DNA of 45,404 nucleotides, the filler included, from Craspedostauros australis (Eukaryota): assembly GCA_030167865.1 (NCBI GenBank). It is 6 parts of 6 records of this genome, joined end to end, with 100 filler letters (N's around TTAATTAATTAA, not from the genome) between each part and the next. Parts side by side here need not be neighbours in the genome. Positions count along the whole stretch, not along the records: positions 24,103 to 42,621 come from JALAGF010006732.1; 5 more parts are not named here. One strand, written 5' to 3'. The notes under the pieces are model-generated. The model had not been told where the DNA came from. It saw only the letters and a list, made by a program, of their open reading frames with translations, and ran no database searches. The translations under genes and the position numbers were made by a program. Of this stretch, positions 13,049 to 45,404 are shown one piece after another. The number at the start of each line of letters is the position of its first letter. Position 1 is the first letter of the stretch.

Positions 13049-13220
13049 CAAGACACGGGAATTTCGCTGAAACTCGATGCCGTTTGCGTTCGACCACATG
13101 GACTAATCCCCCAATGCCCCAAACGAAATCTGGGTGGACTCAATGGACCACCATTGAATTTGTAGTTTAACGTATTTAACGCCTTTTGGTTTGAATACCG
13201 AACACCTCCCAACGAACACA

Positions 13221-13377
13221 AGTTCGATGAAAGTACCACCAGTTCGATGAAAGTACCATCACTTCGATGAAAGTACCACCAGTTCGATGAAAGTACCACC
13301 TGTTCGATGAAAGTACCACCAGTTCGATGAAAGTACCACCAGTTCGATGAAACTACGACCAGTTCGATGAAAGTACC
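13221..13377 (+). repeat. Left subterminal 20-bp tandem array x8 (AGTTCGATGAAAGTACCACC)
   Basis: Eight consecutive 20-bp units counted directly. Confidence 0.97.
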
Positions 13378-18272: not shown

Positions 18273-18372
18273 NNNNNNNNNNNNNNNNNNNNNNNNNNNN
18301 NNNNNNNNNNNNNNNNTTAATTAATTAANNNNNNNNNNNNNNNNNNNNNNNNNNNNNNNNNNNNNNNNNNNN
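18273..18372. other. Artificial scaffold linker
   Basis: TTAATTAATTAA at 18317-18328. Confidence 0.98.
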
Positions 18373-24002: not shown

Positions 24003-24102
24003 NNNNNNNNNNNNNNNNNNNNNNNNNNNNNNNNNNNNNNNNNNNNTTAATTAATTAANNNNNNNNNNNNNNNNNNNNNNNNNNNNNNNNNNNNNNNNNN
24101 NN
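24003..24102. other. Artificial scaffold linker
   Basis: TTAATTAATTAA at 24047-24058. Confidence 0.98.
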
Positions 24103-27100
24103 ACGCGGAGAACGGTATGTCAACATGGGCCTCTCCACCCGCCACGCATCAACAGTCCCCCTGGTGTTGTCACCACGGACAGGATCCATCACTCCGCAAT
24201 TTCACGTCGTTTTTGACGATTGGTTCGCAACCATCGCAACCAACCCAAGCGACCTTCCCGACTACAACACTAGTGAGTGGACCCACATGTTCGGCGATAC
24301 AACCTACCAGATTCCTTTCGACGACGAAGACATCATCGCCATGGAAGAAAGAGACATCGAACGTGAAGACGCAAACGATCATCGACGGTTTCACTCAATC
24401 AACGATGTGCCGATGCCACCGCCGTCATCAGGCGCGCAACAAGCACCCACGCGAACTCCGATCGACACGGATCCACCAGCTCACATTTTGAGGCAGCCAT
24501 CGGAACCGGAAGTGAACAACGACGCAACACCGATCGATCAAGTGCAACCACCTCAACCAACCTCTCAACCATTGGACACTGTTCACAACGACACACTCAC
24601 GTCACCAGTGCCACAAACAGAGGGAGCTGAGGAGCTACCGGAACGCATCACCACGACCTCGCCGAGCCTGTTGTCACCAACAGAGGGAGCGACAAACGAC
24701 GACGAAAGTGGTGTCATGCCGATCTCAAGTGATTCTCCTCCAGCTTCGCCACCTCGTGAACCCATCCACGCGCCAACGAAAAGAGACAAGGCCAAACCAA
24801 CCAGGCCGCCTCCACTTCGCCGCTCGGAGCGTATCAACAAGCGAGAGCCAAGAGAACGCAAAACCGTCGAGCGGCTCACCTACGACAAGCTAGGGGGCAA
24901 AGTCGTGTGGGCAGATGAAGACACGCTACCCATCGAAGCTAGCGCGAACGTGACAACTCAACACACAGGCAACCCCAGCAAGACCCAAGCGGTGCAGGCC
25001 ATGAAGAAGGTCCTACTGGAGTGCCGTCAGTCGCTCATGGAGTTCACAGAGCACCCTGACGACCAGGTAACACAAAAAGCCAAGGTCCTGGTCCGTGACG
25101 CGGAATCCATGCTCCGAAATTTGAANACCATCGATACCNAAGAGCTACAAAAGGACGAACGGCGTTGGGCGCAGGGCGACCTCGAGATGGAACGGATGCT
25201 ACGTGCAAGACAGCTCGAGATCCGGGCCGAGATGCGTAGGGAACAAGAGGAGGCAGCGGCCGATGAAGCAACATCGCCGCATGAACACCACATCCTCATG
25301 ATGAGCAACCAATCCGGCTCGTCCTCAGAGGACGACGACTCATTCCCCGGTCACCCCATGGACCCCATCGACATCGGTCACCTGTGGCCACACCACGTCA
25401 ACATCACTCGGCACATCCGCCACTACTTTGACCATGTGGTGCAGTTCCGATTCCCGACGGAGGCCGCAAGGAGCCAGTGCATCTACTACGCCATCCGTAG
25501 GTTCGTTGACGCCGTCGACGAAATGCTCGAAACAGGTGAGTATCACCTCCCCGTCTCGTACTTCGGATTCATACCAAGAACACAAGGCCAGCGGTATACT
25601 CTGGAGCGAGCCATTGCGGCCATGGAGAACGGTCTACGGCCACCGGACGAAGATGAACGGGTACAAGACTTCATGCGACGAGCAGGCTTCGCGTGGCATC
25701 TCATCACGCATGACGAGCGATTTGAGATCGGAATACTTCACCTGCACATCCAACTCGGAGTCGCACCCGAGGTACCACCAACGATCATGGCCCCACCGAG
25801 CGAATTCGAACCGGCCGAACAGCACGCTTCGGCATCAACTCACTACGCCCACCGACCACCGCAGCATGACGATGAAACCGACGAACACTACGCGATGGCA
25901 GCAGCGGTCGAACACGACGACAACGACGACCACAGTGCCCTCATCGCATACGACTTGCTCAGCTTCTTCACCAGCGGCGGTGACCTCGATATCGCAGATC
26001 GTCACTACAGCTACAAGGCATCAAAAGCTGACCCTGACACCCTTTCCTTCAACGAGGCAATGAATGACGACAACAAAAGCGAATGGATGGCCGCCGCGCA
26101 CAAGGAAATTCACGACCTCACCAACAAAGGAACGTGGATTGAGGTGCCAAAATCCTCCACCACCGATCGCATCTTCCCGGGGACATGGGTATTCCGACGC
26201 AAGCGAATGCCCGACGGCACGGTCAAGAAATACAAAGGCCGATGGTGCTGCAGAGGCGATATGATGACCGAAACGGAAGCGACCTACGCTCCGGTCGTCG
26301 CATGGTCGTCCGTTCGCGTCTTTCTCATCCTTTCCATTTTGCTCCGCTGGGTTACGACATCGATCGATTTTTCGAACGCGTTCGTCCAAGCCGACATCCA
26401 CCGACCTGTCTACTTACACCTCCCTCGCGGTTTCCGATCAACAAATGGACCTGACACATGCCTCAAGCTGATTAAAAGCCTTTATGGTCTCACCATAGCT
26501 CCCAAGCTATGGTATCAGCATCTCGTGCGCGCACTCCTTGCGGAAGGGTTTCACGCGTGTGATCAAGAGAAGTGCCTGTTCATGCGCGACGGCATGATGA
26601 TCGTTCTCTACGTGGACGACGCTGGCATCGCTTCGCGTACGGAAGAANNNNNNNNNNNNNNNNNNNNNNNNNNNNNNNNNNNNNNNNNNNNNNNNNNNNN
26701 NNNNNNNNNNNNNNNNNNNNNNNNNNNNNNNNNNNNNNNNNNNCGCAAACGCGGATTTGATCTCACACGCGAAGGCACGTTCACGGAATTTCTGGGAATA
26801 TCACTGCACCGAGACCCCAAAAACAACACCATCCACCTCAAGCAAACCGGGCAAATCAACAAGATCATCGAGGCCACCGGCATGCAACACTGCAAACCAA
26901 ACGTGACACCAACAACACAACTCGCCCTTGGCGCCTCAACCGACCAACCGCCAATGAAGGAAGCATGGAACTACCGCTCCATCGTCGGCATGCTGCTCTA
27001 CCTAACTACGAACACACGCCCCGACTTGGCCTTCGCCGTCTCTCAAGTGGCCCGATTCAGCAACGATCCTCGCCAACCGCACGCAAAGGCTATCAAGATG

Positions 27101-28323
27101 ATCGTGCGATACCTCCGCCACACCAACACCATGGGCACCATCGTACGACCAACGGGCCAACTCAACCTGGAATGCTACGTCGATGCCGATTTTGCTGGTC
27201 TATACAAGCGCGAGTCCGACGATTCCCCCAACGCAGTACGCTCACGTACCGGCTATGTCATCATCCTCGGTGGCTGCCCGCTCGTGTGGAAATCGAAGCT
27301 GCAGACGGAGATCGCCTTATCGACAATGGAGTCGGAATACGCCGCGTTGTCTCTTGCCATGCGCGCCCTCATCCCCATGCAACAACTCATCAACGAAGTG
27401 AATGCATCAACACACCTCAACCAACCGCTGCAAACCAACATTCAATGCACCGTTTTTGAAGACAACGAGGCGTGCATCTCACTGGCAACAAACCACAAGG
27501 TCACGGCGCGAACCAAACACTTTCTCNNNNNNNNNNNNNNNNNNNNNNNNNNNNNNNNNNNNNNNNNNNNNNNNNNGGCGCCTCAACCGACCAACCGCCA
27601 ATGAAGGAAGCATGGAACTACCGCTCCATCGTCGGCATGCTGCTCTACCTAACTACGAACACACGCCCCGACTTGGCCTTCGCCGTCTCTCAAGTGGCCC
27701 GATTCAGCAACGATCCTCGCCAACCGCACGCAAAGGCTATCAAGATGATCGTGCGATACCTCCGCCACACCAACACCATGGGCACCATCGTACGACCAAC
27801 GGGCCAACTCAACCTGGAATGCTACGTCGATGCCGATTTTGCTGGTCTGTACAAGCGCGAGTCCGACGATTCCCCCAACGCAGTACGCTCACGTACCGGC
27901 TACGTCATCATCCTCGGTGGCTGCCCGCTCGTGTGGAAATCGAAGCTGCAGATGGAGATCGCCTTATCGACGATGGAGTCGGAATACGCCGCGCTGTCTC
28001 TTGCCATGCGCGCCCTCATCCCCATGCAACAACTCATCAACGAAGTGAATGCATCAATACACCTCAACCAACCACTGCAAACCAACATCCAATGCACCGT
28101 TTTTGAAGACAACGAGGCGTGCATCTCACTGGCAACAAACCACAAGGTCACGGCGCGAACCAAACACTTTCTCACCAAATGGCACTTCTTCTGGCACTGG
28201 GTCAAGGAAGGCTTCATCCGAATCCTACACGTACCGCCACCACATCAGGTCGCTGACATCTTCACCAAGGGCCTTGCGCGGGATGCATTCGAGCACCTGC
28301 GACGAATGCTCATGGGATGGTGA
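24103..28323 (+). CDS. pol: Copia pol C-half: integrase C-terminus, long insert, RT, RNase H (a second Copia lineage)
   Basis: HASTVPLVL...ITPQFHVVFDDWF; ADPDTLSFNEAM; GTWVFRRKR; IDFSNAFVQA; LYVDD; YVDADFAG; FEDNEAC; ADIFTK...LMGW stop at 28321-28323. 26930-27526 is repeated at 27577-28173 across a 50-N gap. Confidence 0.95.
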
Positions 28324-28438
28324 TGGCACCACAAATTGTGAACTGTTGATCGAACGATGGAGGTTTTTACACCGGGGACATGCTTCGCNNNNNNNNNNNN
28401 NNNNNNNNNNNNNNNNNNNNNNNNNNNNNNNNNNNNNN

Positions 28439-29020
28439 CTTGTACATGTCGAATAGCGCCTTGATGCTTTTGCCTCCACGATCAAAGACCGGAACTTTCT
28501 CGAATACGACTCCTTCCCACTCAACTGCGTGGCACAAGCCAGCCTTGTACGTGGTCGTAGTGCAGAGAAACGACACCATACCAGACAAAGCACATGCAGT
28601 CACACGGTATTGGAGAATTTTGGGCGGAATGGTTTCCCCATCACTCAACATGTCGTAGTAGCGCTGCAATGTCTTCTGTTGGCTTTTAGTGATGGTTTGT
28701 CGATTGCTATGTACATGCANGCGTTCTTCCTCCGGCAATCCATNGGCGTATCCAGTGAGAATATCTGTGCATGCTTTTGGAGATGCAGACTCTGCGAGAA
28801 CGGCTCTCGCACAGAGGTGCATCAGTTTGCTCCCTCCAACACATATGCGGAGTTGGGACAGACTAGCTCCGGGACTGACTCGGGACTTGACTGTCCATTC
28901 CGCGTACACGGTATTCGGTACCCAAGACCGATACTGTGATGAAAGGCTACCACACACACGATGTGTAGTTGAACTGCAATCCATGCGTTGCTCACCCTCC
29001 AGCTCATGCACCCCTGCCAC
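28439..29020 (-). CDS. Hypothetical protein fragment, possibly degenerate
   Basis: 217-aa ORF with globular composition. No recognised motif. Confidence 0.25.
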
Positions 29021-29256
29021 CTGTCCAGCTCGTCACTCTGCCGAACATGCACCCATCTTGAAGCATATCCATGTGAATGGATCAGCTGCTGCTCTATGGG
29101 TGATGATACTGGAAGACTGTATGTGTGCAGGATCACCACGGCATGCTGCTGCGCAACAAAGAACGGCTGAAGTACGACAGCACAAACCCCACCTTTTTAC
29201 TCGATCGTCCTATCAATAGTTAGCTTAACACATAAAACAAGCAATCAGAAACAATC

Positions 29257-30573
29257 CTACCAGCTTACTTCCAAGTCTACTACAGTTACATCATCGTCTG
29301 ATACAGCTTTGTTCTCAACATCAAACGGCGTCAAAACCGGTTGAAGGACAAACCATCCTCTTGACAACGTGCAAAAGACACGGAATACTAACTTGCGGTA
29401 CAAATTTGGTGCAAGTGTCAGTGGTGGCAGTGCTTGCCCTGCCTGGACAAATTGCACCACCTCATGCATCTGGCCAGTTGGTGTCGCTTCTTTTGGGAGC
29501 AACACATCCCAGAGCGCAGAAGCAATTGGCGCCCACANCCGTTTGATGTTGCACCAGACTTGCTTGTTGTGGGATCCACCAAGTGTGAATCCCGTCTTCG
29601 GCATGGAGTTGAACACTTTTGGAGGTAGCCCAGACTTAACCAACCCTGCAACGCGGACCAACGCATCGCGACGCCATCCTCTCACCGTTTTCTGGATGAG
29701 TCTGTTACGGCCTGTTCGCTTCTTCCTGCGATCACGGCCATCCACGTAGTCGTCGTCGCTGTCAACATCAACTTGCTTGGAAGCGCCTCCAGCGACAGCG
29801 TTTGCGTGTCGTGCAGTGCTTGCGCGGGTAGTTGGTTTGGCAGGAGACTCAACAGGAGGTGGCACGTTCACACNNNNNNNNNNNNNNNNNNNNNNNNNNN
29901 NNNNNNNNNNNNNNGTACGCAGTGTGACCGTTGGTGTATCAAAGATGACACCAGCCGCACTGGACAGGCGCACGTCAACGCGCAAGTTAGCGGCATCGAC
30001 ATGCGCCAAAGTTGGAACAAGGTTGCTGTCCACTGGAAGCATCGGCTTCACCTCGATCGCGTGAATGATGTCGGTGGGCTTCCGCAATCCAGTAGACAGC
30101 TTGTCAGGCAACAGCTGCTCACGAGTAGGTGCCAAGTTGCCATCCGAATNNNNNNNNNNNNNNNNNNNNNNNNNNNNNNNNNNNNNNNNNNNNNNNNNNC
30201 TGATGTCTACCACTGTGATAGCACCGACACCTTGTCCAACTGTACGCAGTGTGACCGTTGGTGTATCAAAGATGACACCAGCCGCACTGGACAGGCGCAC
30301 GTCAACGCGCAAGTTAGCGGCATCGACATGNNNNNNNNNNNNNNNNNNNNNNNNNNNNNNNNNNNNNNNNNNNNNNNNNNNNNNNNNNNNNNNNNNNNNN
30401 NNNNNNNNNNNNNNNNNNNNNNNNNNNNNNNNAGGCAACAGCTGCTCACGAGTAGGTGCCAAGTTGCCATCCGAATCAAAAGGAGAATCGAGAGGGGCAG
30501 CACAGGAACGAGGCTTCTTACAAGGAGATGGGTTTTCGCCCTTGATTGTTGCTATGGCGGGGATGGAGGACAT
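29257..30573 (-). CDS. Hypothetical protein (MSSIPAIATIK...), gapped with an internal gap-flanking duplication
   Basis: Long open frame with a plausible ATG just after a (TCAA)n tract and a basic NLS-like RDRRKKR. No family recognised. Confidence 0.45.
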   Translation of the reverse strand: MSSIPAIATIKGENPSPCKKPRSCAAPLDSPFDSDGNLAPTREQLLPXXXXXXXXXXXXXXXXXXXXXXXXXXXXXXXXXXHVDAANLRVDVRLSSAAGVIFDTPTVTLRTVGQGVGAITVVDIXXXXXXXXXXXXXXXXXXSDGNLAPTREQLLPDKLSTGLRKPTDIIHAIEVKPMLPVDSNLVPTLAHVDAANLRVDVRLSSAAGVIFDTPTVTLRXXXXXXXXXXXXXXXVNVPPPVESPAKPTTRASTARHANAVAGGASKQVDVDSDDDYVDGRDRRKKRTGRNRLIQKTVRGWRRDALVRVAGLVKSGLPPKVFNSMPKTGFTLGGSHNKQVWCNIKRXWAPIASALWDVLLPKEATPTGQMHEVVQFVQAGQALPPLTLAPNLYRKLVFRVFCTLSRGWFVLQPVLTPFDVENKAVSDDDVTVVDLEVSW

Positions 30574-30596
30574 GGTGTTGATGGTAGCAAAGGAGG

Positions 30597-30637
30597 TTGA
30601 TTGATTGATTGATTGATTGATCGATTGATTGATTGAT
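30597..30637. repeat. (TTGA)n microsatellite
   Basis: ttgattgattga...tcga...ttga directly upstream of the 30573 ATG. Confidence 0.95.
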
Positions 30638-31215
30638 CGATGAACGGCACTGTAGAACGCGGAACCAAAGCGAGTGGAGGAGGTGATGCCGATAGAGGTG
30701 TTGGAGGCAGCAGCGAGAACAACAACCGCCAATGTCACTAGTGCTCTCACTGCTCATACTACAACCGCAGCACAACAGATACAACGAGCATCGCATCGGC
30801 GGAGGCACCTTTGGAATGAAGCCAAAAATGTGACGGTTTTTGTGTCGGCGTGGCGACGATGTGTCCGTGCGCATGTGATGATGTGTGTGATGTCACAAGT
30901 GGAAAATGTCAATCGATTCCGGAGCAGCTAACGGTGTGTAACGTGTTCCAAACGAACGAGAACGAAGGAAAAAGCTGGAGACACAAACGTGAATGGACAT
31001 CAATCGTTATTAACTCGGAATAGCAAAGAACCTTCGAAAAAACTACATCGTGGAATGCTACGTTTGACCCCTACGACTCCAAATATTTGATGGTCCGTAA
31101 AACTTAAACTATGAACTTTAAATTTCTGGGTAATTTTCCTGTTGCTATGGAGACTATAATAAGTTGGTTTATATGCTTGGTTGGGTTGAAATCGAAGAAA
31201 AATTGCCACTCTACT

Positions 31216-33873
31216 TTACCAAAGGTTGGTCGACTCACTCACCTGGGTCATATGAAGTCGACTTATGTCTTCTGTTGTTTCTGTTGTTGCTGTTTCTGTT
31301 GTTGCTGTTTCTGTTGTTGCTGTTTCTGTTGTTTCTGTTGTTTCTGTTGTTTCTGTTGTTTCTGTTGTTTCTGTTGTTGCTGTTGTTGCTGTTGTTGCTG
31401 TTGTTGCTGTTGTTGCTGTTCTTGCTGTTCTTGCTGTTCTTGCTGTTCTTGCTGTTCTTGCTGCTCTTGCTGTTCTTGCTGTTCTTGCTGCTGTTGCTGT
31501 TGCTGTTGCTGTCAGCACACAACCGGTTGTTTTGTTGCTTGGTTCCTTGTTGAGCCTATCTTTTCGTTTGACTCGTTTGACTCGTTTGACTCTAATGCTG
31601 TTGCCATCCCGTCGTGACGTCACACCTTCGTCTGGTTTCGCTCCAATACGCCCCTTCATGACGGGATGTGGATCATCGGATATGTCCTGGTGGTGTATGG
31701 CGACATAAGCACTTCGTCGCATCTTGTTCTCTGCAGGGATGGATGTCTGAGTCTTGGTGGTTTCTGCTTGCGTTGGTGCTTCTGGCTGGTTGTCTGCGGG
31801 TTGCTGTTTGCCGGACTTGGCAGCATTCAGGTGAGGAGGGTCACGGAACAGTGAGAGCTTGGTCAGCTGGTAGAAGGTCGCTTTCGATACTGACTTGGTG
31901 AGGATATCTGCTTCATTATCATGGGATGAGATGTGAACGAATCGAAGGATTTTGGCTGCAATGGCTTCTCTGATGCGATGATAGGCGATGCCGCAGTGCT
32001 TCTTCTTGAGTACACTCGACGGGATATAGGTGTTTAGCACGACCGACTTGTTGTCGCCCAGGAGCACAGCTGGACCGTCCAAAGGAACACCCATTGATCG
32101 TAGCGCATTCCATAGCTCGATGATCATGTCGACGGCGATGCGGGCAGCGACGAGCTCAGATCCATATGTGGAGGATTCCACGGTTCGTTGCCGCTTGGAG
32201 TATGTGCGAACAACCATGCCGTTGACTTTTGCGATGATCCCGGTGACGGATCGGTGGGTGACGATGTCATGGGCATGATCTGCATCAACGTATACCATGA
32301 GTGTTGCCTTGGCTCCCTTGGGTGTGATAGTCTTGTATGGAAGCGTCTCTTGTGCGTCAGGATAATACTCGTTCCATTGACTGGCATAGCCACAGGGAAG
32401 GTGGTGATGAGATGGTGTGTGTGGATCGCACAACAAGCGCCCCTGTTTGCGGTGTTTCAGGTAGCCGAAAACTCGTTTCATCGCTCGTAGATGCACTTCG
32501 TGAGGTGCCATGCTGAACCTGGAGAGTGCCATGACCGCGAACTGTACATCGTACCGCCCAAGAGTGATGATCCAGTTGGCGCTGCCGATGAGAGAGCGAT
32601 ATTTGCTCGCGTTCGAAGGACTGGGCAAGGGAGATTCATCCGTTTCGGCATGATACGACTCGGCCATGGGGACTTGTGTGTTGGGAAATGTGCAGTCCAG
32701 CATCTTCTCGAGCTTGGCGGTTGCGTTGTTGATGTAGGCGTTGGCAGAGAGGGCGGTGAAGATGTCATGTTGTTGCCGTTCTGCATCGAGGGATTCCACA
32801 TTTCCACCCAGGTAATACTCAGGTGCTCCAATGCCTTTGAGGTTGTAGTGTTGCTTGAGCTTGTTGATGATGATCATGGGCTTCCGGCTGAAGACGAGTA
32901 CGTCGTCGACATACGTCGCAACGAGTTCGTAGTGATCATTGCGCTCCTTGATCCATAGGTCAGAATCATACAGTGATGGCATGAATCCCATCTTGCGGAA
33001 TCGATGTGCAAGGTGCTCATGGAAGCAAGCGCTGGACGTGCGAAGTCCATACAGTCCCTTGTGGATGATCAACTTTTGTCCTTCCAGTTCCTTGAACTCG
33101 GGTCCTGCAACGATGTATCGCTTCTCTTTGGTCTTTGCATACAGAAAGGCGTTCCCCACATCAGCTGCACACACCTGGAGCTTGTTCATGGCTGCAATCG
33201 CAAAAGCGATGCGGATGGTTTCAATGGCCACCACGCCAGAGTAGACATCCTCTCCGGAAGGCTCACATATGTTGCCATTGGCAACGAGACGTGCTTTGCG
33301 TCGCAAGTCGAACTTCACATCGAAGATGATGTGGTATGGGATTCGTTGATACTCATCCATGTTGTCCTCAGCGGTGGGAAGTCGAAATGTGTTGTGGTCG
33401 TTGATCTGTTTCAGTTCCATCTGAATCGCATCAGCCAATGTGGTGTCACCACTGATTCGGTCGATGAATAGGGCATGCTTCACGGATTGGGGTACAAGCA
33501 CTCCGAACTTGTAGCGATGTTTGAATCGGTCTGCCTTCTTTGCAGCATTCACCATCATGGTATGCATGTTGTGGAGCATTGGATGGACCCATTGGAATTG
33601 CGGCTGTTGTAGGAGGTTGGATGTACGTGCATATTTGTCAGGAATCGGGTGTCCTGAAACACCGAATTGCCGCACCTCCCAAGAGCCAGGAGTTGAATGT
33701 CATGATATGCTACATTACCGCAACTCCCACCTTTGGATCTTTGTGACAGAAAAATGTGAGCTGCACGTAACTCGCGGTGGAGAACGCCACGTGCCGAATG
33801 CGAACCGTACTTTGGCGTTCATGACTCCAGTGCAGGAATGCCAATCACACGTGGATGTCGCAGGGGGCAGGGA
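31216..33873 (-). pseudogene. Copia (CoDi-like) RT-RNase H, degenerate at the 5' end and interrupted by a younger Copia at 33874
   Basis: YKFGVLVP, IFDVKFDLRRKARLVA, ADVGNAFL, TYVDD, YVDADHAHD, ESSTYGSE, LGDNKSV, ADILTK. The ORF continues into a low-complexity tract. Confidence 0.92.
31271..31511. repeat. Compound 9/15-bp microsatellite (TGTTTCTGT, TGTTGCTGT, TGTTCTTGC)
   Basis: Successive blocks of related 9-mers, open in several frames. Confidence 0.95.
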
Positions 33874-34429
33874 TGTTGGAATCGTGACCAACATCACGAT
33901 ACACGCAACTATGGCCCTCATGTCGCATCCAATGAGAAAAGAGTAATGGAGGAAGGTCGATGTCACGAAGTGTGAGATGGCCTGTGAACGAACCTGAGAT
34001 GAGGAACATCCAGGAAGCCGGTGAAGTGATCGGAGAAGTAAGCAGAGATGATCGGAGATGTGTAATGATGAGGAGCTGAGAAAGCCCTCATGCAAGGTAT
34101 CCCTGAAACGAATGGGAGACCGTGATCCGATCGAATGGACCGAGCTGTATGATGCCTACGACTCGGCGATGTCTAAGGCATCGAAACTATCAGCAGAGGA
34201 CAACGTGCTGTAGTGCACGGACATGGGGCACTAGGTGGTGCATGCATGTCCATTATGAATTTGCAATGAATGCAAGATGGATGCCTGCTAGACCAACAGA
34301 GGGACCCATGGTGATCCCAGGAGGAGATCGAACTTTGCAATTGAGAGCAATGAAGAGCTCACAGTTCAGAGAAGCAGATTCTAACAAACGATTAGCTTTC
34401 TACTATCACACCACCCCGGATTTCCAACA
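33874..34429 (+). mobile_element. 5' LTR (556 bp) of the plus-strand Copia
   Basis: Ends TGTTGGAA...TTCCAACA form a perfect 8-bp inverted repeat. The LTR ends 75 bp before the gag ATG at 34505. Confidence 0.75.
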
Positions 34430-34504
34430 CGTTTCGAAACGTTACAATTGAAATCCTACGTTTCACCCCGCACCAACAAGCCATCATCCACCTTCATCAT
34501 CATC

Positions 34505-37500
34505 ATGAGTACCTACGAGTCCAAGTCCAACCGCATCGTCTACTTCGACGGTAAAAAGGAGAACTGGAAGTTCTGGCATGCCAAGTTCCTCTGTCGCGCT
34601 AACCGCAAGGGTTACCGCGACATGCTCTTGAAGCCCTACTCTGATGCGAAGGTGACTGCTCCCTCCGCTGCAGCCAAGTCCCTGGCAGCAACCATCAAGT
34701 CTGATCCAGGCGCCAAACTCAAGCCGAGTGCCAAGTCCGGTACCAAACCGAGTGCTGCGGATCTAGCGGATTGCAAGGAAGCAATGGCGAAGTTCGCCTT
34801 TGAGGAACTGACCATGGCGATGAACCATGATTCGAAGGAAGGAAAGATTGCCTTCAAGGCGGTGTGGGGATGCGAGGGCATGCTGAATGGGGGAGGAGAC
34901 CCTCATGCAGCTTGGGTGGCCCTCGGGCGCATCTACGAGCAACGCACTGCGCCTATGAAGGCAAAGTTGCTGGCGGAGCTCAACGCGATGCGATTGAAGA
35001 AGGGAGAGAATCCGGATCTCTTCTTGACAGACATGGAGGTCCTTCGCAACTGACTGATCGACCAGGAGGTGATCGTTGACGTCGAGCAGCTTAACATGCT
35101 TGTGCTCAACGCGCTTGGCCGCGAGTACGAGATGGATGTGAAGCTACTCGAACTCAAGTTCCACAGAAAGGAAAGAGAGATGACCGTGGGCGACATCCGC
35201 GAAGCTGTGAGCCTTACCTACGACCGCCACCATCTCAAACATGGTTATAAGCGCGCAGGCAACAGCAGCAATGAGGAGCTCGCTCTGTTCGGAGCTGGAC
35301 AGTTCAAGGGAAACTGTCGCAGCTGCGGAGCCTACAGGCACAAAAAGGCGGACTGTTGTGCGCCAGCCAAGGGAGGCAACAACAAGAGAGGCGGTGGGTC
35401 CAAGAAGAAGGGCAACCATGCCGATGCCAAGGGCGGATCCAAGAAAGGTGGATTCAACGGCAAGTGCAACTACTGTGGAAAGGCAGGGCACAAAATCATC
35501 CAATGCTTCAAGCTGAAGGCAGCAATGAAGGAAGCAGAGAGCGCCAACATGGCGATGGATGGCGACGACGCGATGGACGATATGGCACTCGTCATCGCAG
35601 ACAGTGGTTTCGTTGAGATTGACGATCTCGATGAGATCGAACTCGAGGATGGACTCGAAGAGGATCTCTTCGAAATCATGGAGTCGTACCCTTCGACCAA
35701 GAGAGTCGAACCACCAACCAACCAAGACATTCGCGACCTCATGAACGATGACCTGCTCGAATCAGACGAGAGCATCGGAGTCACGGAAGTCGCAATGCCA
35801 GGCGTCGATGTCAACAATGCGCCACCTACGCAAGAGGAGGAAGCAACAGCTACTCGGATGAGCAGCGCCATCGACTACCTCCTACGTAACGAGATCGATC
35901 GCGTATGTGAGCGCAACAGAACGGATGCATGGTGTCCAATCTGTCTCGCGTGTGGAGCGATGTACTCGTGGTGCACAGGATGCACCGAATTCGACGTGTT
36001 CAAGATTCGAGCACGCTGGGCGTTCAGAGACATCCCAACGACCACCGAACCTGAAAGGATTCGCTGTCGAGCAATCCTGAGCCGATTCGATTGCGTGGAA
36101 GACGCGGTCAGGGTTTCTCTATCCAACGTATTGGAAGCCAACGATGTGCGTGTTAATGACGCTGTCTTCTGCTTCGATGTGAGAAAGAAATCCATCGAAG
36201 ATGGAAGCAACTGCATGGGAAGCAGGGAGCTCTACTACATGCTCACACAGATTGGCCTCAACGGAGTGTTCGACGTATCATGCAAGATTGTGGTCATCAA
36301 CGAGCTGCTCGAGGAAAGACAGCTGCCACTGCTCCCCAAACACTTAATGATGAGGATGAGCAGGATGGCCGCATCACAGCTCATGTGGATGCACAACTGG
36401 GAGGACACCGAAGTGCGCGACGGGATGGAATGCCCAGAACTCCCCAAGACCAAACCACTTGTGGGAAGTCCTCAACATCAAGTTGAGATGATGGAACGCC
36501 TTAATGCAGCAAGATTCGGACACGAAATGGCCATGGTGATCGAGGATCACGAGTTGAATGAGAACAACCGCGAGCTGGTTGCACCAGACCAACATGAAGC
36601 TAACCCATGGTTGGGGGATACCGGCGCATCATGTCACTTAACGAACAATGATGAAGGTATGACCAATGTGCGCCTCTCGAATTTCTCTGTGAAGGTGGGA
36701 AGCGAAAAATTCCTCTGCGCCACCAAGGTCGGTGACCTACGCATGAGAGTGATGCAGAAGGACGGCAAGAGCGCCATCATCCTGAAGGGAGTGCGCTACG
36801 TGCCTAAGCTCTGGGTCAACCTACTCAGCATCGGCAAGGCGCTCCATAACAGATTCAATATCAGCAACAAGGGAGTCATCATCGCACTGGATAAGAATGG
36901 ACAGCGCATCCGATTCGATTGGATCATGGCAACTCACAGCGGATTCGTGCTTGGTGTGAACATGGTGCCTGCCCCTAAGAGCGAAGAGATGGCGAATGTC
37001 GGGTTTGATACAAAGAAGCCCATGGATGTGAATAAGCTCCATAAAATGCTAGGCCACGTTGACTCTTACACGATCTCCAGGACGGCGAGACAATATGGAT
37101 GGAATGTCACTGGAACTCTCAATCCATGCGAGGACTGCGCAATCGGAAAGGCGAAGCAAAAACGCCTGACCAAAACTCTCCAACCACGGGCGAAGAAGGT
37201 CGGAGAACGACTCTTCATGGACACTTCAAGTGTCCAAGCAACAAGCTTCGGACATGGGAAGTACTGGCTCCTGGTCATTGATGACTACAGCGACTACTGC
37301 TGGGGCTACTTTGTTAAGGAAAAGAGCAAGGTTGGTCCCAAACTACTATCCTTGTTGAAGTGGCTATCAGGCAATCAACAAGTGACAGTGAAGAATGTCA
37401 GATGTGACAATGCCGGAGAAAATTACAGCGCCGAGGCATTACTGCTGAGGGCAGGCTTCGCCCCAACCTTCGAATACACCGCCGCATCAACTCCTCAACA

Positions 37501-37937
37501 GAACGGAAGAGTGGAACGGAAATTCGCGGTTCTCTACGGTAAGGTCAGGTCAATACTGAACCAGGCGCACCTACCAAGACAACTGCGCGGCAAGCTATGG
37601 GCAGAGGCAGCAAGGAATGCAACGCAGATTGAGAACATCATCGAGACCAAATCGAGGGATCCTGCGTGTCTACTACTCAACGGACAGACCCCAGCCTACG
37701 CAAAGGGACTGCATATCTTCGGGGAGATCGGAATGGTCTACATCGGCAGTCGCGCAATCAAAGCGAAACTGGATGACAGATCCAAGCCAACCATGTTCGT
37801 CGGATACGGACAGTCTCATGCGAATGGTGTATACCGCATGATGAACCTGGCAACCACGAGAATCCTAATCACCAGAGACGTGACATGGATGAACCATTCG
37901 TATGGGCAATTCAAGGGTATTGAGAATGCCAACAGAA
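34505..37937 (+). pseudogene. Copia gag-PR-INT with an in-frame TGA inside gag (35051-35053), truncated by a DNA element at 37938
   Basis: FDGKKENWKFW; two knuckles CRSCGAYRHKKADC and CNYCGKAGHKIIQC; WLGDTGASCH; LHKMLGH...CEDC; LFMDT, RCDNAGE, QQNGRVER; KLDDRSKPTMFVGY...TRDVTW. Confidence 0.93.
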
Positions 37938-38215
37938 CACAATGTATTAGCGCAACGCTATATTCCTAACAATAGCGACACCCGTCGACCAATCAGAAAT
38001 CTTCTCTTTTCTTACCTTTTCCGTTCCGAACGGAAATTCTGGTCAAAATTCCGTTGTGTCAATTTTGTGTCGCATTTCGCGTCGCAAGAACCGTTTTCCC
38101 GTCAATCCCAGTTCCAACATGTCGCGGAAATGAATTTCTTGCCAAGATGAACCACTCTGCCCAATCAGGACAGACTTGGTCTTGGGTCCGATAAATATCC
38201 ACAAGGAGAAAACCC

Positions 38216-38288
38216 TTGCGTCAGGACGCAAAAACGGCTTTTCTTGCGTCCTGACGCAACCCCAAAATAAGTTTGCGTCAGGGCGCAA
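38216..38288. promoter_or_regulatory. Three phased 16-bp palindromic sites TTGCGTC-NN-GACGCAA
   Basis: 38216-38231, 38244-38259 and 38273-38288 (one mismatch in the third). Spacing is 28 and 29 bp. The regulatory role is inferred. Confidence 0.6.
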
Positions 38289-38591
38289 CCCGTGTTGTTT
38301 AACCCGCGTAGAATCCAATCGAATTTTCTTTTTAGACTAATACGACTGGTCGGTCCAATTCTTCCTCTCCCAGCACACTCCAGTTCGCTCTGGTTCCCTC
38401 TTGTTTTGGGTGTTGCGACCGTTGGCTTTTCTGCTCTATTGAGTATCGTCGACATGCGGCTTTCCGATGCCGAAGTTGACGTCTGTGTGTTTGTTGGTGT
38501 TGGTTTGCATGTTGTATTCACATCTTCTGCACAACCAAAGACTTTCAGCTGGCTCTTCTCCTTGTCAACCAACATCTATCTACATGCAAAC

Positions 38592-41500
38592 ATGGACTCT
38601 CTCTTAGAAGCAATTTCTGGCGTAGAATCCGCCAACGTCGTCGACGTCCCGATGCTTTCCGAGGCTGGTGGGTTGGATGATGGTGACGACGCAGCTCCTG
38701 AGCCTGGGTCCGCTCATGCCACAGGCAGATCCCCTGAGGCATGGGATGCCAACTTGGATACTGCCAATGTTGGAGTATCCGACAACAACAACGTTGCATA
38801 CATGCGGAGCGACGATGAAGGCGCTGTGGAAAATCCCAATGTCCACCCACATTCAGAGGACTTCGGTGCTTTCCCTTCCGCCAAGTTCGGCGTGAGCCAG
38901 GACGTTTGTCTGCCCTCCAGCATTGGTGACTCCGACAAGGTCTTGAACTGGTTGGTGTTGTGCCCAGAGGTGCATCAAACAAAGGTCTCTGTCTCCGCGG
39001 CCCACGACTTCGCTCTCCACAATGCGAGCCATGAGATCCGCAGGGCAAGAGCTGCTGTGTTGCAGCTCTTCCGAAAAGCTGCCCCTGGTTGCCAACCTTT
39101 CGTTCCCACCCATCACCATCTGGTGGATTACTTACTTGGCCGCTCCTCCTCCATCTACACCAATGCATTCGGTCCAGGCGGATTGGGGTTCGAGTACCTG
39201 GACTATGTTCAGTTCCTTTATGGTTTCTGCGAGCAGATGATTCAAAACGTGACCGTGAAGCGCGTCTACGACTCTGGGGCTGCGACGTACTTGCCCCACT
39301 TTCCAACGAAGGCAACGTACTTGTCATTGTGGTCCACAATCAGGGACAACGGCGAATCTGGCAACACTGTTGGCCATTGTTTCCTGTGGTCCGATTTGGA
39401 GGCGGCAATCAACACGCCCTTTCAAAAAATCTTCCTCCGCGGCACCAACTCCCATCGTGTGGTCACGCTGGACGACGACAAAGTTCATTGTCGTAGCTCT
39501 GCCGAGAGCAGTTGCTTGCTCAACATGCGCCACACGCAGGCGAACCGCGAAGGGTAAGACTGACAGGATGTATGCGCGTCTTCCAGCATGACTGGATGTG
39601 TCATTGCTGTTTCTCCAGATCACTCACTCACCTTCGCCTTCCATTTCTACATGAATCCATTCAGTATGACTGTCAACACTTTGGTACAGACAGCATCAGG
39701 GCTTGTTGTGGGGGTTGCTGCGTCTTGCGACGGGATCGACAACGACAACCGTCAGCTCCTTGCACAGCTCGCCCAGACCGACGGCCGTCTCCGCCATACA
39801 ACACTGATGGCCGACCGAGGCTATCTCAACGAGTCCATCACTCGTGAGTTATTGTCCAAGAGCGCAGACATCGAGGGCACACACATGCGCAGCGGCCATC
39901 TCCCATTCACCTTCAATCAGTACAATGGAAGCAGCAAACGGCAGATTGATGTTGGCAAGCCAGGCCCAAGACGCTTGTCCATCGCGACGACCACAAGCAT
40001 GTCTGGACGCCAATTAGGACTGTATGCATACCGAAACAAACAAAAGGCTGTCCTTGCAATGTCCACAGATACTCCTTCCTTTGCTTGGGACATCAATCTC
40101 AAGAGCTCACAAGAGCAACAAATGTACCAAGACATGACTAAGAGGAAGGAAGGAGATGATCCAAGATCAGCAACATATCCTCGTTTCTTTCGGCAATGCC
40201 TCCCCTTGCAGGAGTGTTCATCANNNNNNNNNNNNNNNNNNNNNNNNNNNNNNNNNNNNNNNNNNNNNNNNNNCCGACCGAGGCTATCTCAACGAGTCCA
40301 TCACTCGTGAGTTATTGTCCAAGAGCGCAGACATCGAGGGCACACACATGCGCAGCGGCCATCTCCCATTCACCTTCAATCAGTACAATGGAAGCAGCAA
40401 ACGGCAGATTGATGTTGGCAAGCCAGGCCCAAGACGCTTGTCCATCGCGACGACCACAAGCATGTCTGGACGCCAATTAGGACTGTATGCATACCGAAAC
40501 AAACAAAAGGCTGTCCTTGCAATGTCCACAGATACTCCTTCCTTTGCTTGGGACATCAATCTCAAGAGCTCACAAGAGCAACAAATGTACCAAGACATGA
40601 CNAAGAGGAAGGAAGGAGATGATCCAAGATCAGCAACATATCCTCGTTTCTTTCGGCAATGCCTCCCCTTGCAGGAGTGTTCATCAACATACCGGACAGC
40701 GTCATGTCGTGCCCACAGTGGTACTCCTGGCACACCATCCCCTTCCTCGAATATTCCAGCAGCACCTCCAACTGCTGCACTCGCGAATGATATTCCTGCC
40801 ACACGCCGGCTCCAGAAATCTTCCACGCCTTCTCGGATCACAAACACAACAAATGAAGACGAGACCTGCTTGGCATGGGAAGAGAAGCTGTGGAGTCTGG
40901 AGGTTGATGGATTGACATGCGAACAAGGAGACCATCTCTGGTTCGTGCATAGGAGGTACTCATTCACATCGACGTCAACGTTTGCCATGATCCAGGAGGT
41001 CCTCAAGAGTGGTGAGTGGAGCAGCCCAGACAGCGGCCATGTCTTCAACCGAGAAGCGTGGGAAGACGTCGGGCGGTACATGGGATTCGATATCGCCGGG
41101 ACGAAAGAAGCATACACAGTGGATGTAGCTCAGCAGAAACATGGATTAGTAGCGTCCAAGTTTCACACGAAGCTGACCAATCCTACGTATGACTCCCAAG
41201 ATTTGGAACAATACATGCGTACCGTCGTCGACGAACCAGACGGTGATGATGAAGTGATGCCCATTGAAGTGCTCACCGCCATGATGCACTTATTCTATGG
41301 AAGTCGGAACAGGCGCAAACCCTCCACCCTGAGAGCGATGCTTGGAAACATCCTGGACGAACCAGACAAGCTCAGGCGGAGATTCATGGCCATGAACACG
41401 GTGACTTTGAAGAGGCAGCTAAGTCTGCGCTTCCCAACACAGACGGAAACCGACGCATCAAACGAACGAATGATTGACCGGCTGATCGCAGCGACAATGA

Positions 41501-42621
41501 ATAAGCCAAACTCAAAGGAAGAGAGAGCAACACTAGTTTCTAACAACGAAGCTGACACACCCTGGATGTCGTCATTGAAGACTTCGTTGGCGTCGACCAT
41601 GCTACGAACCTGGTTCATGACGCCACNNNNNNNNNNNNNNNNNNNNNNNNNNNNNNNNNNNNNNNNNNNNNNNNNNTGAGTGGAGCAGCCCAGACAGCGG
41701 CCATGTCTTCAACCGAGAAGCGTGGGAAGACGTCGGGCGGTACATGGGATTCGATATCGCTGGGACGAAAGAAGCATACACAGTGGATGTAGCTCAGCAG
41801 AAACACGGATTAGTAGCGTCCAAGTTTCACACGAAGCTGACCGATCCTACGTATGACTCCCAAGATTTGGAACAATACATGCGTACCGTCGTCGACGAAC
41901 CAGACGGTGATGATGAAGTGATGCCCATTGAAGTGCTCACCGCCATGATGCACTTATTCTATGGAAGTCGGAACAGGCGCAAACCCTCCACCCTGAGAGC
42001 GATGCTTGGAAACATCCTGGACGAACCAGACAAGCTCAGGCAGAGATTCATGGCCATGAACACAGTGACTTTGAAGAGACAGCTAAGTCTGCGCTTCCCA
42101 ACACAGACAGAAACCGACGCATCAAACGAACAAATGATTGACCGGCTGATCGCAGCGACAATGAATAAGCCAAACTCAAAGGAAGAGAGAGCAACACCAG
42201 TTTCTGACAACGAAGCTGACACACCCTGGATGTNNNNNNNNNNNNNNNNNNNNNNNTCGACCATGCTACGAACCTGGTTCATGACGCCACTTCGCGGGAA
42301 AGCAGCGAAAGATGCAAAACTGGGCCACAACAATGAGTTGCCGTTGATACGGAAAGCAATGGAGACCATGAAAGTGGATGGCGAGCGTTCTCGAATCAAG
42401 GCAGCATATCGGTCAGGGCTGGTATGCAGGAAAGATGCCAGGTACGCCCGTGCTTCGGTAGACTTCCTGGCTGTGGTGGGAGACCCGGGCAGCAGCACTA
42501 CAGATGAAGTATTTGTGGTTGAGGTGAAAACCAGAACCAACACCACAACGCAAGACATGGAAACAGCACACCAGCAGGGCGCGCGGGTGCGTGGTGATCT
42601 CGGAGAAGGGAATCATGTGTT
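38592..42621 (+). CDS. Putative transposase (piggyBac-like DD[D] core) fused to SAP-like and YqaJ/lambda-exonuclease PD-(D/E)XK domains; 3' partial
   Basis: VTLDDDK (39471-39479), LMADRGY (39810-39824), EGTH, AYRNKQKAVLAMST; EQGDHLWFVHRRYSFTST (40921-40980); SAP-like MNTVTLKRQL...MIDRL; LGHNNE, RSGLV, ASVD, VEVKTR. One intron and two gap-flanking duplications. Confidence 0.7.
39554..39664 (+). other. Predicted 111-bp spliceosomal intron
   Basis: GG|GTAAGA donor, CACTCAC branch-like motif at about 39621-39631, TTCAG|T acceptor. Splicing removes the TAA at 39555 and joins ANREG to MTVNTL in frame. Confidence 0.8.
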
Positions 42622-42721
42622 NNNNNNNNNNNNNNNNNNNNNNNNNNNNNNNNNNNNNNNNNNNNTTAATTAATTAANNNNNNNNNNNNNNNNNNNNNNN
42701 NNNNNNNNNNNNNNNNNNNNN
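42622..42721. other. Artificial scaffold linker
   Basis: TTAATTAATTAA at 42666-42677. Confidence 0.98.
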
Positions 42722-45404
42722 CTCGATTCCATTCTGCTTCTTGCTGTACCATAAGATGGGTGAGGAATTCAAGAAAAGTAAAACACCTGTTCGAGATCGT
42801 CGTGTATATTGATCTCCTGCATGATCGGCATCAACAAAACACGTCATCTGGACTTCTCTGCCTCTTGGTTTGGGCATGTCATGTGGTATCAATTCGCGTG
42901 CGTCGGGGTAGAAGGATGCCCAATCTGGTGTTGGAATGGTGTTCTTCTTGACGTATGCATCGTCNAACACCAAACGTGATCGGTCATGTGAGTTGAGATA
43001 GGCAAACATATGGAAAAGCACACGCAAATGCCCTGTTCTGGGGGCAGCACAGTATGAAGACATCATGCTTGTTTCGCAGCATATGTCGATCCGCCCCAAC
43101 TCGACGATCCACCTCAGGATCCCAATCAGCTGTTGATAATAGTTCATCTCCTCTGGATCNCAAAGGGCNGTGGCGTCAAGCTCTGGACGGTANCCGTTTG
43201 GTATNACGCTTTTCGCGCTGGTACGGAATTTACCGCCACGGGCCTCAAGCCATTTCTGTGCCATCTTCGTGACCTCTCGGACGTATCGCTGGGATCCCAT
43301 GCTCCACTTTGGCCGCTCCGGTTCTGCTGTGAGATGGAATGGAGCGATTGTAGAGCCGAGGTATGTTGTTGGTGGACCGATTGAGGCGGGTTTAAGAAAG
43401 AAGTAAGAACCAATGTGTGAGAGTATCGCGCTGGGATCTTTGGAGATCGCCAGAATGTCATCAGTGTACACGAGGATGTACTCNNNNNNNNNNNNNNNNN
43501 NNNNNNNNNNNNNNNNNNNNNNNNNNNNNNNNNNNNNNNNNNNNNNNNNNNNNNNNNNNNNNNNNNNNNNNNNNNNNNNNNNNNNNNNNNNNNNNNNNNN
43601 NNNNNNNNNNNNNNNNNNNNNNNNNNNNNNNNNNNNNNNNNNNNNNNNNNNNCCTGCGTCTGCCCCGAACTCAGGTCCACATGTTGTGTAGACGCGTTCG
43701 CGGCATGGCGCGTTGAGGTATGCGTTCATCACATCTGCCGCAAGCACATCGAGGTCGTTCAGCGCTGCCAAGAGGAATGCGATTCGAACACTCTCGCGTG
43801 TCACCACACTGGCATATGTTATGCTGGATGGTGCTTCAGTCATGTGACCACCTGCCACAAGTCGCGCCTTTCGTGTGAGGTCGACTTTGATATCGAAGAT
43901 CATGTGACATGCAATGTAGGTGTATCCGACTGGTGGCTTCGTGTCTTCGGTCTTGATGTCGAATGCTGGTCGAACGTTCTTCATCTCCTTCTCTAATGCT
44001 TTGCGCCAGAAGTCGGTTCCTGTCTCCTCGTCGATAGCAAGAGCTCGTTCGACGCTCTTTGGTAGTTCGAGACCATATTTCTCGTTGCGTCGGAAGTATC
44101 GTTTGCGGTTAGCCATCAGGATGCGGTTGCGCCGCTTCATTGTGTATGGAACCCACCATCGAAAGGCAGGCTCATTGGTGAGTTGGTTGTTGGTTGCGTA
44201 TTCGGCTGTCTTCACAGGATCAGCCTCCTTGGCATCTCGTAAATGAATCCATGATGTAGATCCGTCTNNNNNNNNNNNNNNNNNNNNNNNNNNNNNNNNN
44301 NNNNNNNNNNNNNNNNNGCGCCAGAAGTCGGTTCCTGTCTCCTCGTCGATCGCAAGAGCACGTTGGACGCTCTTCGGTAGTTCGAGACCATATTTCTCAT
44401 TGCGTCGGAAGTATCGTTTGCGGTTGGCCATCAAGATGCGGTTGCGCCGCTTCATTGTGTATGGAACCCACCATCGAAAGGCAGGCTCATTGGTTAGCTG
44501 GTTGTTGGTTGCGTATTCGGCTGTCTTCACAGGATCAGCCTCCTTGGCATCTCGTAAATGAATCCATGATGTAGATCCGTCTTTCCATAACACACACAGC
44601 TTCCATCCCTTGGTCGTCTTCGTGGTCGTCTTGTCATCAGCGGTTGCTGCGGTTGGGAGTCGCTTATGGTCGATGATGTCCTCCATCAGAAGTGTTGTGT
44701 ATCCGTCGTCGTCTGTTCGCGCATAGATATTTTCTGCGATCTGATTCGCATTGAACACTTCGCTGTGCCCGTCAACAAATTCAACCTCATACATGGACGT
44801 GTCAAGAAGTGGATTTGAATGTGAGTGACCAATCAGCTTCCCGCTCGCATCGCGCTTTNNNNNNNNNNNNNNNNNNNNNNNNNNNNNNNNNNNNNNNNNN
44901 NNNNNNNNNNNNNNNNNNNNNNNNNNNNNNNNNNNNNNNNNNNNNNNNNNNNNNNNNNNNNNNNNNNNNNNAATCAAAGGTTCCAATGATGTAGTCTGTT
45001 CCAGGAATGCAATGTCTTCGGCTGTGTCGTCGACGTCGTCTCCGTCGTCCCCTGGTTTGATGCCTTCCATTCGATCTTTCCATTTGTTTCGTAGATTGGA
45101 CATGAAGTCGGATTGTTGTTGCTTGACTGCTTCACTGTTGAGGTCGACATCGGATAAAGGAATGACAGAGGATTTAGAAACAACAGCGCCAGAAGATGTG
45201 AGAATGTACGAGCACATCGCNTCACCCACGGCCTTNGACGGACCGAGGTAGCGACCAAGATGTTTTGTGTTCATGTTTGCTCCCTGGAGATTCATGTACC
45301 ACACAAAGTCGAACCACCCAAATTCTGAAATGTGTGAGATGTCGGTGGTGTCGCCAGTCAGGATTGTAGTTGGTGTCTGGCCATGTAGATCATATATCTG
45401 AAGT
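42722..45404 (-). CDS. pol: Copia (CoDi-like) pol, partial: integrase C-terminus, chromodomain-like region, RT (YTDD), RNase H start
   Basis: FGWFDFVWY..LGRYLGP; IIDHKR...GWKLCVLWKDGSTSWIHL; KYGLELP; HMIFDIK..KARLVAGGH; ADVMNAYL; EYILVYTDD; FVDADHAGD. Confidence 0.95.

Follow-up and report, generated by a model that had tools for sequence, protein, structure and literature searches.

A probable cut-and-paste transposon of Craspedostauros australis with a piggyBac-like transposase and a nested YqaJ-type nuclease

A stretch of 45,404 nucleotides from Craspedostauros australis (assembly GCA_030167865.1), hereafter called the window, contains what is probably a cut-and-paste DNA transposon inserted in a Copia gag-pol frame. 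Its single spliced gene would encode a piggyBac-like transposase with a nested YqaJ-type nuclease, the nuclease being split in its turn by SAP-like motifs. About the left two-thirds of an autonomous element would have been captured at the end of a scaffold (positions 24103-42621 of the window, from JALAGF010006732.1). Compared with piggyBac, an insert of about 570 residues would sit in the loop joining the last beta strand of the insertion domain to the helix of the third catalytic Asp; it would comprise a linker and the nuclease, which is itself divided by two SAP-like, presumably DNA-binding, motifs. The mobility of the element is argued from the interruption of an open 971-codon Copia frame and from the presence of a second version of part of the element, distinguished by 10 transitions.

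The spliced gene and its family

The reading frame that starts with the ATG at 38592 reaches 42621 and encodes 930 amino acids without a stop, after removal of an intron and collapse of two duplications flanking assembly gaps. It contains the motifs VTLDDDK, ADRGY, GTH, AYRNKQKAVLAMST, EQGDHLWFVHRRYSFTSTS, GHNNE, GLV, ASVD and EVKTR. The preliminary description of this DNA, made from the sequence alone, had read one GT-AG intron, two gap duplications and a single open reading frame (ORF) of more than 900 amino acids with the same motifs, and the collapsed frame agrees with that reading. The intron (39554-39664) is 111 nt long, has GT...AG borders and includes an in-frame TAA. Across the splice, RHTQANREG-MTVNT matches the family pattern RH..DNR.G...HT with no gap, which supports the intron independently. 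At 42621 the frame is cut by the end of the scaffold, and the gene is incomplete for that reason only.

The first duplication repeats 39811-40223 at 40274-40686, on both sides of a 50-N gap (40224-40273), and the sole mismatch among its 413 positions is an N. The second comprises 614 bases, 41013-41626, which recur at 41677-42290 on both sides of another 50-N gap (41627-41676). Outside a patch of 23 N, the two versions of this segment differ at 10 positions, all of them transitions (in five, a G of the first version is an A in the second), and comparison of the translations showed that five of the ten alter a residue. These differences suggest that the second version represents another allele or another copy of the element. 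Repetition of pre-gap sequence after the gap was also observed at 44003 and 44318, where it hits a Copia element on the last scaffold. The recurrence of such repeats across 50-N gaps (44003/44318, 39811/40274 and 41013/41677) suggests an artefact that the assembly introduced systematically.

The family to which the gene belongs is rare and, within the collections searched, exclusively eukaryotic. The HMMER search with the window segment 40276-41625 (from ADRGY onward) against 1.84 billion representative sequences found four proteins at E<=1e-3. A word-seeded search using one of the relatives, P0002, retained seven of 7998 scored candidates, including P0002 itself and two long proteins, P0007 (972 aa) and P0010 (1327 aa). 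The protein search with exon 1, where longer lengths were allowed, gave none (0 of 5135 candidates scored), and the search with the whole length of P0010 returned only P0010 among 7999 candidates. Metagenome contigs supplied five loci from 279 pattern matches, all short (1.3-2.9 kb) and without usable ends, while none of the pattern matches in viral contigs (0 of 295) or prokaryotic contigs (0 of 55) belongs to the family. Three of the metagenome loci change frame near GTRKR.KG, L003 at about 655-683, L004 at about 762-799 and L005 at about 504-522. The change is read as an intron at one common position, and these loci would therefore be eukaryotic. The window gene has no intron at GTRKR.KG and carries its own between the first and second Asp. 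The nearest cluster of the ESM Atlas, with 56 members of about 1206 aa, is entirely eukaryotic, and oomycetes are its commonest label.

The order of motifs (DDDK, DR[AG]Y, AYRN..., nuclease motif I, the SAP region, GH.NE, GLV, S.D and E.K) is constant in P0002, P0005, P0006, P0007, P0010, the metagenome locus L001 and the window gene. Since it is common to all members that are long enough, the fusion is not an assembly artefact of this scaffold. In the family alignment, the first catalytic Asp (D1, in DDDK) is kept in nine of nine rows and the second (D2, in DR[AG]Y) in ten of ten. The S.D motif of the nuclease is kept in seven of eight rows and E.K in seven of nine, the misses falling in the tails of P0001 and P0004, both truncated models; the nuclease Asp, Glu and Lys are present in every row that truly reaches them. 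The conservation of both active sites across proteins that are 22-34% identical suggests that both are probably used. A separate observation concerns an odd non-conserved stretch within the C-terminal part of the nuclease (P0010 911-941, P0007 about 800-835), which resembles an intron retained in the gene models.

These data bear on the idea that the sequence is not a mobile element, being a gene of the host, a domesticated gene or a dead relic, or, in another variant, that the fusion was created by the assembly or by gene modelling. Neither element ends, a target duplication nor a complete second copy was found in the window, and the scaffold is rich in gaps and duplications, as such an idea would have it. 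The location inside a Copia pol frame, the 930 open codons and the finding of the same fusion in one metagenome contig and in five or more independent proteins from databases make it very improbable.

Transposase core and probably nested nuclease

For the structural comparison, the window protein was represented by the AlphaFold model of P0010 residues 128-1327, built with a 21-row alignment. The model is usable over approximately its first 320 residues, where the means of the predicted local distance difference test (pLDDT) for blocks of 10 residues are mostly 54-91, with two blocks at 43-45 and three at 38-45. Foldseek placed the piggyBac transposase 6x67_C first (E 1.6e-5, probability 1.00) and Tn5 next (7.2e-4), and these were the only two matches at E<=0.001. 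Among 991 chains compared with VIA, 6x67_C again led with Z 10.2 and a root-mean-square deviation (rmsd) of 5.2 over 263 aligned residues, model residues 9-330 corresponding to chain residues 117-431. It was followed by the Tn5 inhibitor 1b7e (Z 9.6), piggyBat 9c0f_D (Z 9.3) and other Tn5 chains (8.6-8.8), after which the scores drop to 5.8.

The matched part of the P0010 model comprises an RNase H-like core with a beta insertion domain, on which Tn5 is tied by Z, and the N-terminal helical DNA-binding and dimerisation domain (DDBD). The piggyBac match is longer than that of Tn5 and also spans the helical domain 117-263; PMC7351741 describes the N-terminal helical domain of piggyBac as structurally unique. 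The structural match ends at piggyBac residue 431, equivalent to P0010 residue 457, which is the end of the beta insertion domain. The C-terminus of P0010, which lies further on than the end of the window protein, is rich in Cys and His (zf-B_box, E 0.51), with pLDDT below 50 there. The piggyBac-like core recognised earlier by motifs is thus also the first choice of Foldseek and VIA for the P0010 model, with Tn5 tied on Z, and on the evidence of the model the enzyme is probably a member of the piggyBac/IS4 clan of transposases, closest to piggyBac.

The clan contains another candidate position for the enzyme, an IS4/Tn5-like lineage or a separate superfamily, in which the nuclease would have been gained independently of any piggyBac ancestry. 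The only Pfam transposase match of the family is a weak one to DDE_Tnp_1, of IS4 type, with E 7.7e-5 for the window, exactly at the cut-off, and E 0.093 for P0002. The Tn5 chains, with Z 8.6-9.6, stand within or near 1 of piggyBac, and the proposed left end of the element has no TTAA. Such a position is nevertheless unlikely, given that piggyBac tops both structural searches with a match including the helical domain 117-263, that the third acidic residue is an Asp in the G-G-x-D setting of piggyBac, and that P0010 has a Cys-rich end like that of piggyBac.

The catalytic triad of piggyBac consists of D268, D346 and D447. According to PMC7351741, Y439, N440, G444, G445 and D447 form the surroundings of the last catalytic residue. 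A motif of this form, aromatic-N-x3-[GS]-G-x-D, is present in two relatives, with a single instance in each: WNSMKGGSD in P0007 (from 936) and WNALKSGSD in P0010 (from 1044). Both instances lie past the nuclease, and the spacing of W-N-x3-(G/S)-G-x-D equals that of the five piggyBac residues. A search for [YWF]N...[GS]G.D found no example in the eight other proteins, all of which end earlier, and none among 90,804 six-frame positions of the window. The occurrence of the third-Asp motif past the nuclease in P0007 and P0010 indicates that the nuclease is probably nested within the catalytic domain, where about 570 residues would occupy the place of piggyBac loop 420-433. In line with the earlier suggestion that the nuclease lies inside the transposase after D2, the third Asp of the window gene is best read as located beyond the scaffold end, on a C-terminal helix that would close the RNase H fold.

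A third catalytic residue situated before the nuclease would imply that the nuclease is appended downstream of a complete transposase core, as described for KolobokE. The candidates are the acidic residue of a W-[DE] pair, kept in 11 of 11 rows, and an acidic residue eight positions later, present in the 11 rows shown; the distance from D2 to this Asp is about 95-103 residues, near the 101 of piggyBac, and the model predicts two short helices at the W-D stretch. VIA, on the contrary, places the W-D stretch opposite piggyBac 425-431, within the insertion domain, and the exactly spaced aromatic-N-x3-G-G-x-D is found only past the nuclease. An appended nuclease therefore seems rather improbable.

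The nuclease was compared by hhalign with a template made of lambda exonuclease (PF09588, E 2.7e-30) aligned with nine diverse phage relatives. With the SAP insert and the columns of the presumed retained intron removed, the family alignment matched template positions 11-136 over 121 columns with a probability of 92.7% and P 4.3e-7. The alignment pairs Q..W...R...TSS with Q..W...R...TAS, GH.NE with G..E, GLV with the corresponding strand, S.D with SPD and E.K with ELK, so that ASVD (42461-42463) and EVK (42521-42529) of the window align with SPD and ELK of lambda. One reversed and ten column-shuffled templates, used as controls, gave P 0.087-0.82. The hhalign comparison with lambda exonuclease alone was insignificant (P 0.14). 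In Pfam, the C-terminal part of the nuclease has weak PD-(D/E)XK matches, including Endonuc_Holl at E 0.012. The Atlas search with P0010 735-1005, a segment without motif I, found PF09588 on 27 of the 30 nearest named clusters (score 0.94, 161 shared features). A second AlphaFold model, of P0010 510-1005, has pLDDT below 50 in the nuclease, and neither Foldseek nor VIA gave a nuclease match with it. The nuclease fold is accordingly not visible in the models, and it is the hhalign and Atlas results that support the assignment, made earlier by motif, to the YqaJ/lambda-exonuclease type of PD-(D/E)XK enzymes.

The insert that splits the nuclease has about 170-200 residues and carries the two SAP-like motifs. 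The second model is confident only at its residues 100-220, where the VIA matches are weak (Z 4.2-5.4). Two adjacent segments resemble the SAP domain of PIAS1 (Z 4.7, rmsd 2.0-2.5), the C-terminal domain of Ku70 (5.0), SLX4 (5.0) and the LEM domain of emerin (4.5); the same segments also match the N-terminal domain of Rho, other SAP domains and unrelated chains at similar Z. The SAP label PF02037 is attached to 20% of the nearest Atlas cluster, and no Pfam match to PF02037 was obtained in the family. The SAP-like helix pair noticed in the sequence is consistent with these helix-extension-helix matches and with the Atlas label, which are supportive and fall short of proof.

Several results weigh against the proposed architecture. 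The Pfam piggyBac model, PF13843 (DDE_Tnp_1_7), has no match in the window pieces or in P0001-P0010 at E up to 1-10, and the YqaJ model, PF09588, has none in any family member at the same limits. The PDB sequence searches with the nuclease piece, with profile A1 and with P0010 gave 0 matches each at E up to 10. The P0010 128-1327 model is poor (mean pLDDT 49.1), and piggyBac (10.2) and Tn5 (1b7e, 9.6) are to be regarded as tied on Z because the gap is less than 1. Neither the nuclease fold nor the closure of the RNase H fold is seen in the models, since pLDDT is below 50 in the nuclease and C-terminal parts. The third-Asp motif comes from two relatives only (both of the two that extend there), and the window stops short of it. 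When the SAP insert is kept, hhalign aligns motif I alone (P 7e-4, 26%), and the removed columns were picked by the author from the family alignment, which is a weakness. At the level of the element, no terminal inverted repeat, target duplication or second full copy was found in the window, and the right end lies beyond the scaffold.

The left end and the setting of the element

The window is made of six scaffolds placed end to end, as indicated by five identical spacers N44-TTAATTAATTAA-N44 (4662-4761, 11175-11274, 18273-18372, 24003-24102 and 42622-42721), and features cannot be read across the spacers. The element is at the end of scaffold 24103-42621, and a different scaffold follows the last spacer. 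The positions of the features are collected in Table 1.

Table 1. Features of the element and its surroundings; positions are those of the window.
Feature	Position	Strand	Remarks
Copia gag-pol frame interrupted by the element	35054-37969	+	971 codons, open; ORF and Pfam matches
Left non-coding part of the inserted element	37938-38591	+	true left end in 37898-37970 or at 38303
Three copies of a 16-nt palindrome (TTGCGTCAGGACGCAA and variants)	38216-38291	.	28-29 nt spacing, upstream of start codon
TTAA-CCC, alternative left end of canonical piggyBac kind	38299-38305	+	TTAA scan
Exon 1: N-terminal helical (DDBD-like) region; first catalytic Asp motif LDDDK (codons 39471-39479)	38592-39553	+	
Intron, 111 nt, with in-frame stop	39554-39664	+	removal gives gapless family fit
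Exon 2, first stretch: second Asp in ADRGY (39813-39815), GTHMR, beta insertion-domain motif AYRNKQKAVLAMST	39665-40223	+	
Assembly artefact: 50-N gap and exact repeat of 39811-40223	40224-40686	.	
Exon 2, continued: low-complexity linker, nuclease motif I EQGDHLWFVHRRYSFTSTS (40921-40980), two SAP-like helix-extension-helix motifs (41257-41493)	40687-41626	+	
50-N gap and second, slightly different copy of 41013-41626	41627-42290	.	10 transitions
Nuclease C-terminal part: GHNNE (Glu 42335-42337), GLV, ASVD (Asp 42461-42463)	42291-42621	+	cut by scaffold end
Nuclease C-terminal part, EVK: Glu 42521-42523, Lys 42527-42529	within 42291-42621	+	
Scaffold spacer N44-TTAATTAATTAA-N44	42622-42721	.	

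The interrupted Copia ORF has Pfam matches to Pol_BBD (E 3.5e-14) and SH3_retrovirus (E 3.2e-10, ending near 37898) and a weak one to rve, and no reverse transcriptase follows it. Past 37969, two further stops appear in the Copia frame before 38300, and the G+C content drops from 0.52 to 0.43 at the transition from Copia to the element. In the preliminary description, the Copia frame was cut abruptly at CACAATG (37938). The Pfam matches bear out the Copia identity, and the point of the break is approximate, as the frame stays open to 37969 and the SH3 match already ends at about 37898. The boundary at 37938 is a guess, good to about 30-40 nt. A junction close to 37938 is favoured because an intact Copia frame of 2.9 kb loses its coding character there at once; it is not fixable to the base, since neither this Copia nor the element has a further copy in the window. 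No similarity to the interrupted copy was found in the other Copia copies of the window, which were tried for dating the break. Further Copia-type pol frames are located at 24104-27604 (+), 31216-33696 (-), 11275-13377 (-) and 42674-45403 (-), the first three with RVT_2 or rve, and they are too diverged to be aligned with the interrupted copy.

No TTAA was found within 37898-37975, where the left junction is proposed. The sole TTAA of the region 37500-38700 is at 38299, 361 nt inward of 37938, and is followed by CCC. This TTAA-CCC would be an end of the canonical piggyBac type if 37938-38298 were a separate piece. The outer boundary, near 37938, is considered the likelier of the two. The statement that the left flank is not TTAA thus stands for the proposed junction itself; it hangs on an unverified boundary, and TTAA-CCC is present at 38299.

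The three palindromes upstream of the start codon are possible protein-binding sites. The binding site of the Cys-rich domain of piggyBac is a palindromic internal repeat, as stated in PMC7351741. An exact 11-nt direct repeat, GCGTAGAATCC, was also noticed at 38306-38316, just after TTAA-CCC, and at 38620-38630, in the coding region.

Relation to known systems and possible roles of the nuclease

The protein resembles the transposases of piggyBac (Trichoplusia ni, 6x67) and piggyBat (9c0f) in its helical DNA-binding and dimerisation domain, RNase H core and beta insertion domain. It would also share with piggyBac the triad of Asp residues, the third of them in aromatic-N-x3-G-G-x-D (in the relatives), and a Cys-rich C-terminus (in P0010). 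Unlike piggyBac, it has an insert of about 570 residues opposite loop 420-433, no PF13843 match and no TTAA at the proposed left end. The nuclease follows lambda exonuclease and YqaJ (PF09588) column for column in the order Q..W...R...TxS, G..E, GL, SxD, ExK and keeps their Asp, Glu and Lys. It differs from them in being split by the SAP-like insert, in being embedded in another enzyme and in having no match to the Pfam model. Lambda exonuclease is a ring-shaped trimer.

The nearest described precedent for the pairing of the two enzymes is KolobokE, which likewise combines a DDD/E transposase and a lambda-exonuclease-like PD-(D/E)XK nuclease in one element. Its nuclease is situated downstream of the transposase domain, according to Kojima and Bao 2022 (PMC9587614), and Kolobok transposases are characterised there by C/DxxH between the second Asp and the last catalytic residue and by a CCHC finger downstream of the first Asp. 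Here the nuclease is nested and the fold matches piggyBac and Tn5, with no hAT-like structure among the matches listed. Another eukaryotic cut-and-paste transposon with a YqaJ-type exonuclease domain is ISL2EU (PHIS superfamily), where YqaJ is a separate gene of unexplained role (PMC4482050, PMC4122938). In contrast to the single fused gene described here, ISL2EU has a Harbinger-like transposase with THAP and a second gene for YqaJ.

Membership of the element in either of these nuclease-bearing groups was considered, as both are described with such a nuclease (PMC9587614, PMC4482050, PMC4122938) and Kolobok has been reported from diatoms, among others. The Kolobok signature is lacking: between D2 and D3, no position has [CD] with H at +3 in at least 60% of the rows, so that C/DxxH is conserved nowhere, and the rows of eight relatives contain 0-2 Cys between D1 and D2, which makes a CCHC finger after D1 impossible. 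No hAT-like structure was found among the 50 Foldseek matches listed or in VIA. As for ISL2EU, there is no DDE_Tnp_4, Plant_tran or THAP match, and the nuclease is in the frame of the transposase. The comparison with the ISL2EU and Kolobok groups recommended in the preliminary description gave no identity with either, and membership in one of them is only a very slight chance, the slightest of the alternatives considered.

The literature searched offers no description of a piggyBac-type transposase with a nested nuclease; Repbase and Dfam were outside this search. Nothing was found for piggyBacX in the literature search, and a term search of PMC13461360 met no words for nucleases or stramenopiles. 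Nuclease-bearing cut-and-paste transposons are already known; it is the nested layout in a piggyBac-type enzyme for which no description was found. The element may tentatively be taken for an undescribed branch of piggyBac, in which a lambda-type exonuclease is built into the loop adjoining the hairpin-handling insertion domain and the 5' strands are processed by its own PD-(D/E)XK site, instead of the hairpin or beside it, and which perhaps does without TTAA targeting; the balance of judgement is against so far-reaching a reading.

The DDD site would do the same work as in piggyBac, nicking and joining of the 3' ends. The 5' strands would fall to the nuclease, anchored next to the insertion domain, the part of piggyBac and Tn5 that handles the hairpin, and the SAP-like motifs may hold duplex DNA. 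Two roles can be proposed for the nuclease by analogy. In the first, 5'-3' resection by the nuclease, either at the donor break or at the ends of the excised element, would feed homology-directed repair; resection of the kind carried out by the phage relatives would favour repair of the donor site from the sister copy. This role is conceivable, at rather low probability.

The second proposal follows Tn7, in which a PD-(D/E)XK nuclease, TnsA, works beside the DDE enzyme TnsB and makes the second-strand cut. TnsA is listed as a PD-(D/E)XK transposase (PMC3424549). By analogy, the nuclease of the element would cleave the second strand, a step for which piggyBac and Tn5 use the hairpin; this role is judged a little less probable still than resection. 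Tn7 serves as the model since it too unites a PD-(D/E)XK nuclease and a DDE enzyme in one machine. It differs in that TnsA and TnsB are separate and bacterial, and TnsA belongs to another PD-(D/E)XK family. The rest of the probability goes to some other role of the nuclease or to no catalytic role at all.

An undescribed branch of this kind, if it exists, would be a eukaryotic parallel to Tn7, with the work of two nucleases brought together in one chain. PiggyBac, a major tool of genome engineering, owes its seamless excision to the hairpin chemistry of its ends. If a natural relative has a second nuclease site, itself intact, in the catalytic domain, it would reveal another solution for the second strand or for donor repair. 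It would also help to account for the YqaJ gene of ISL2EU and the lambda-exonuclease gene of KolobokE, both so far unexplained, because the nuclease of the present protein is bound to work together with the transposase.

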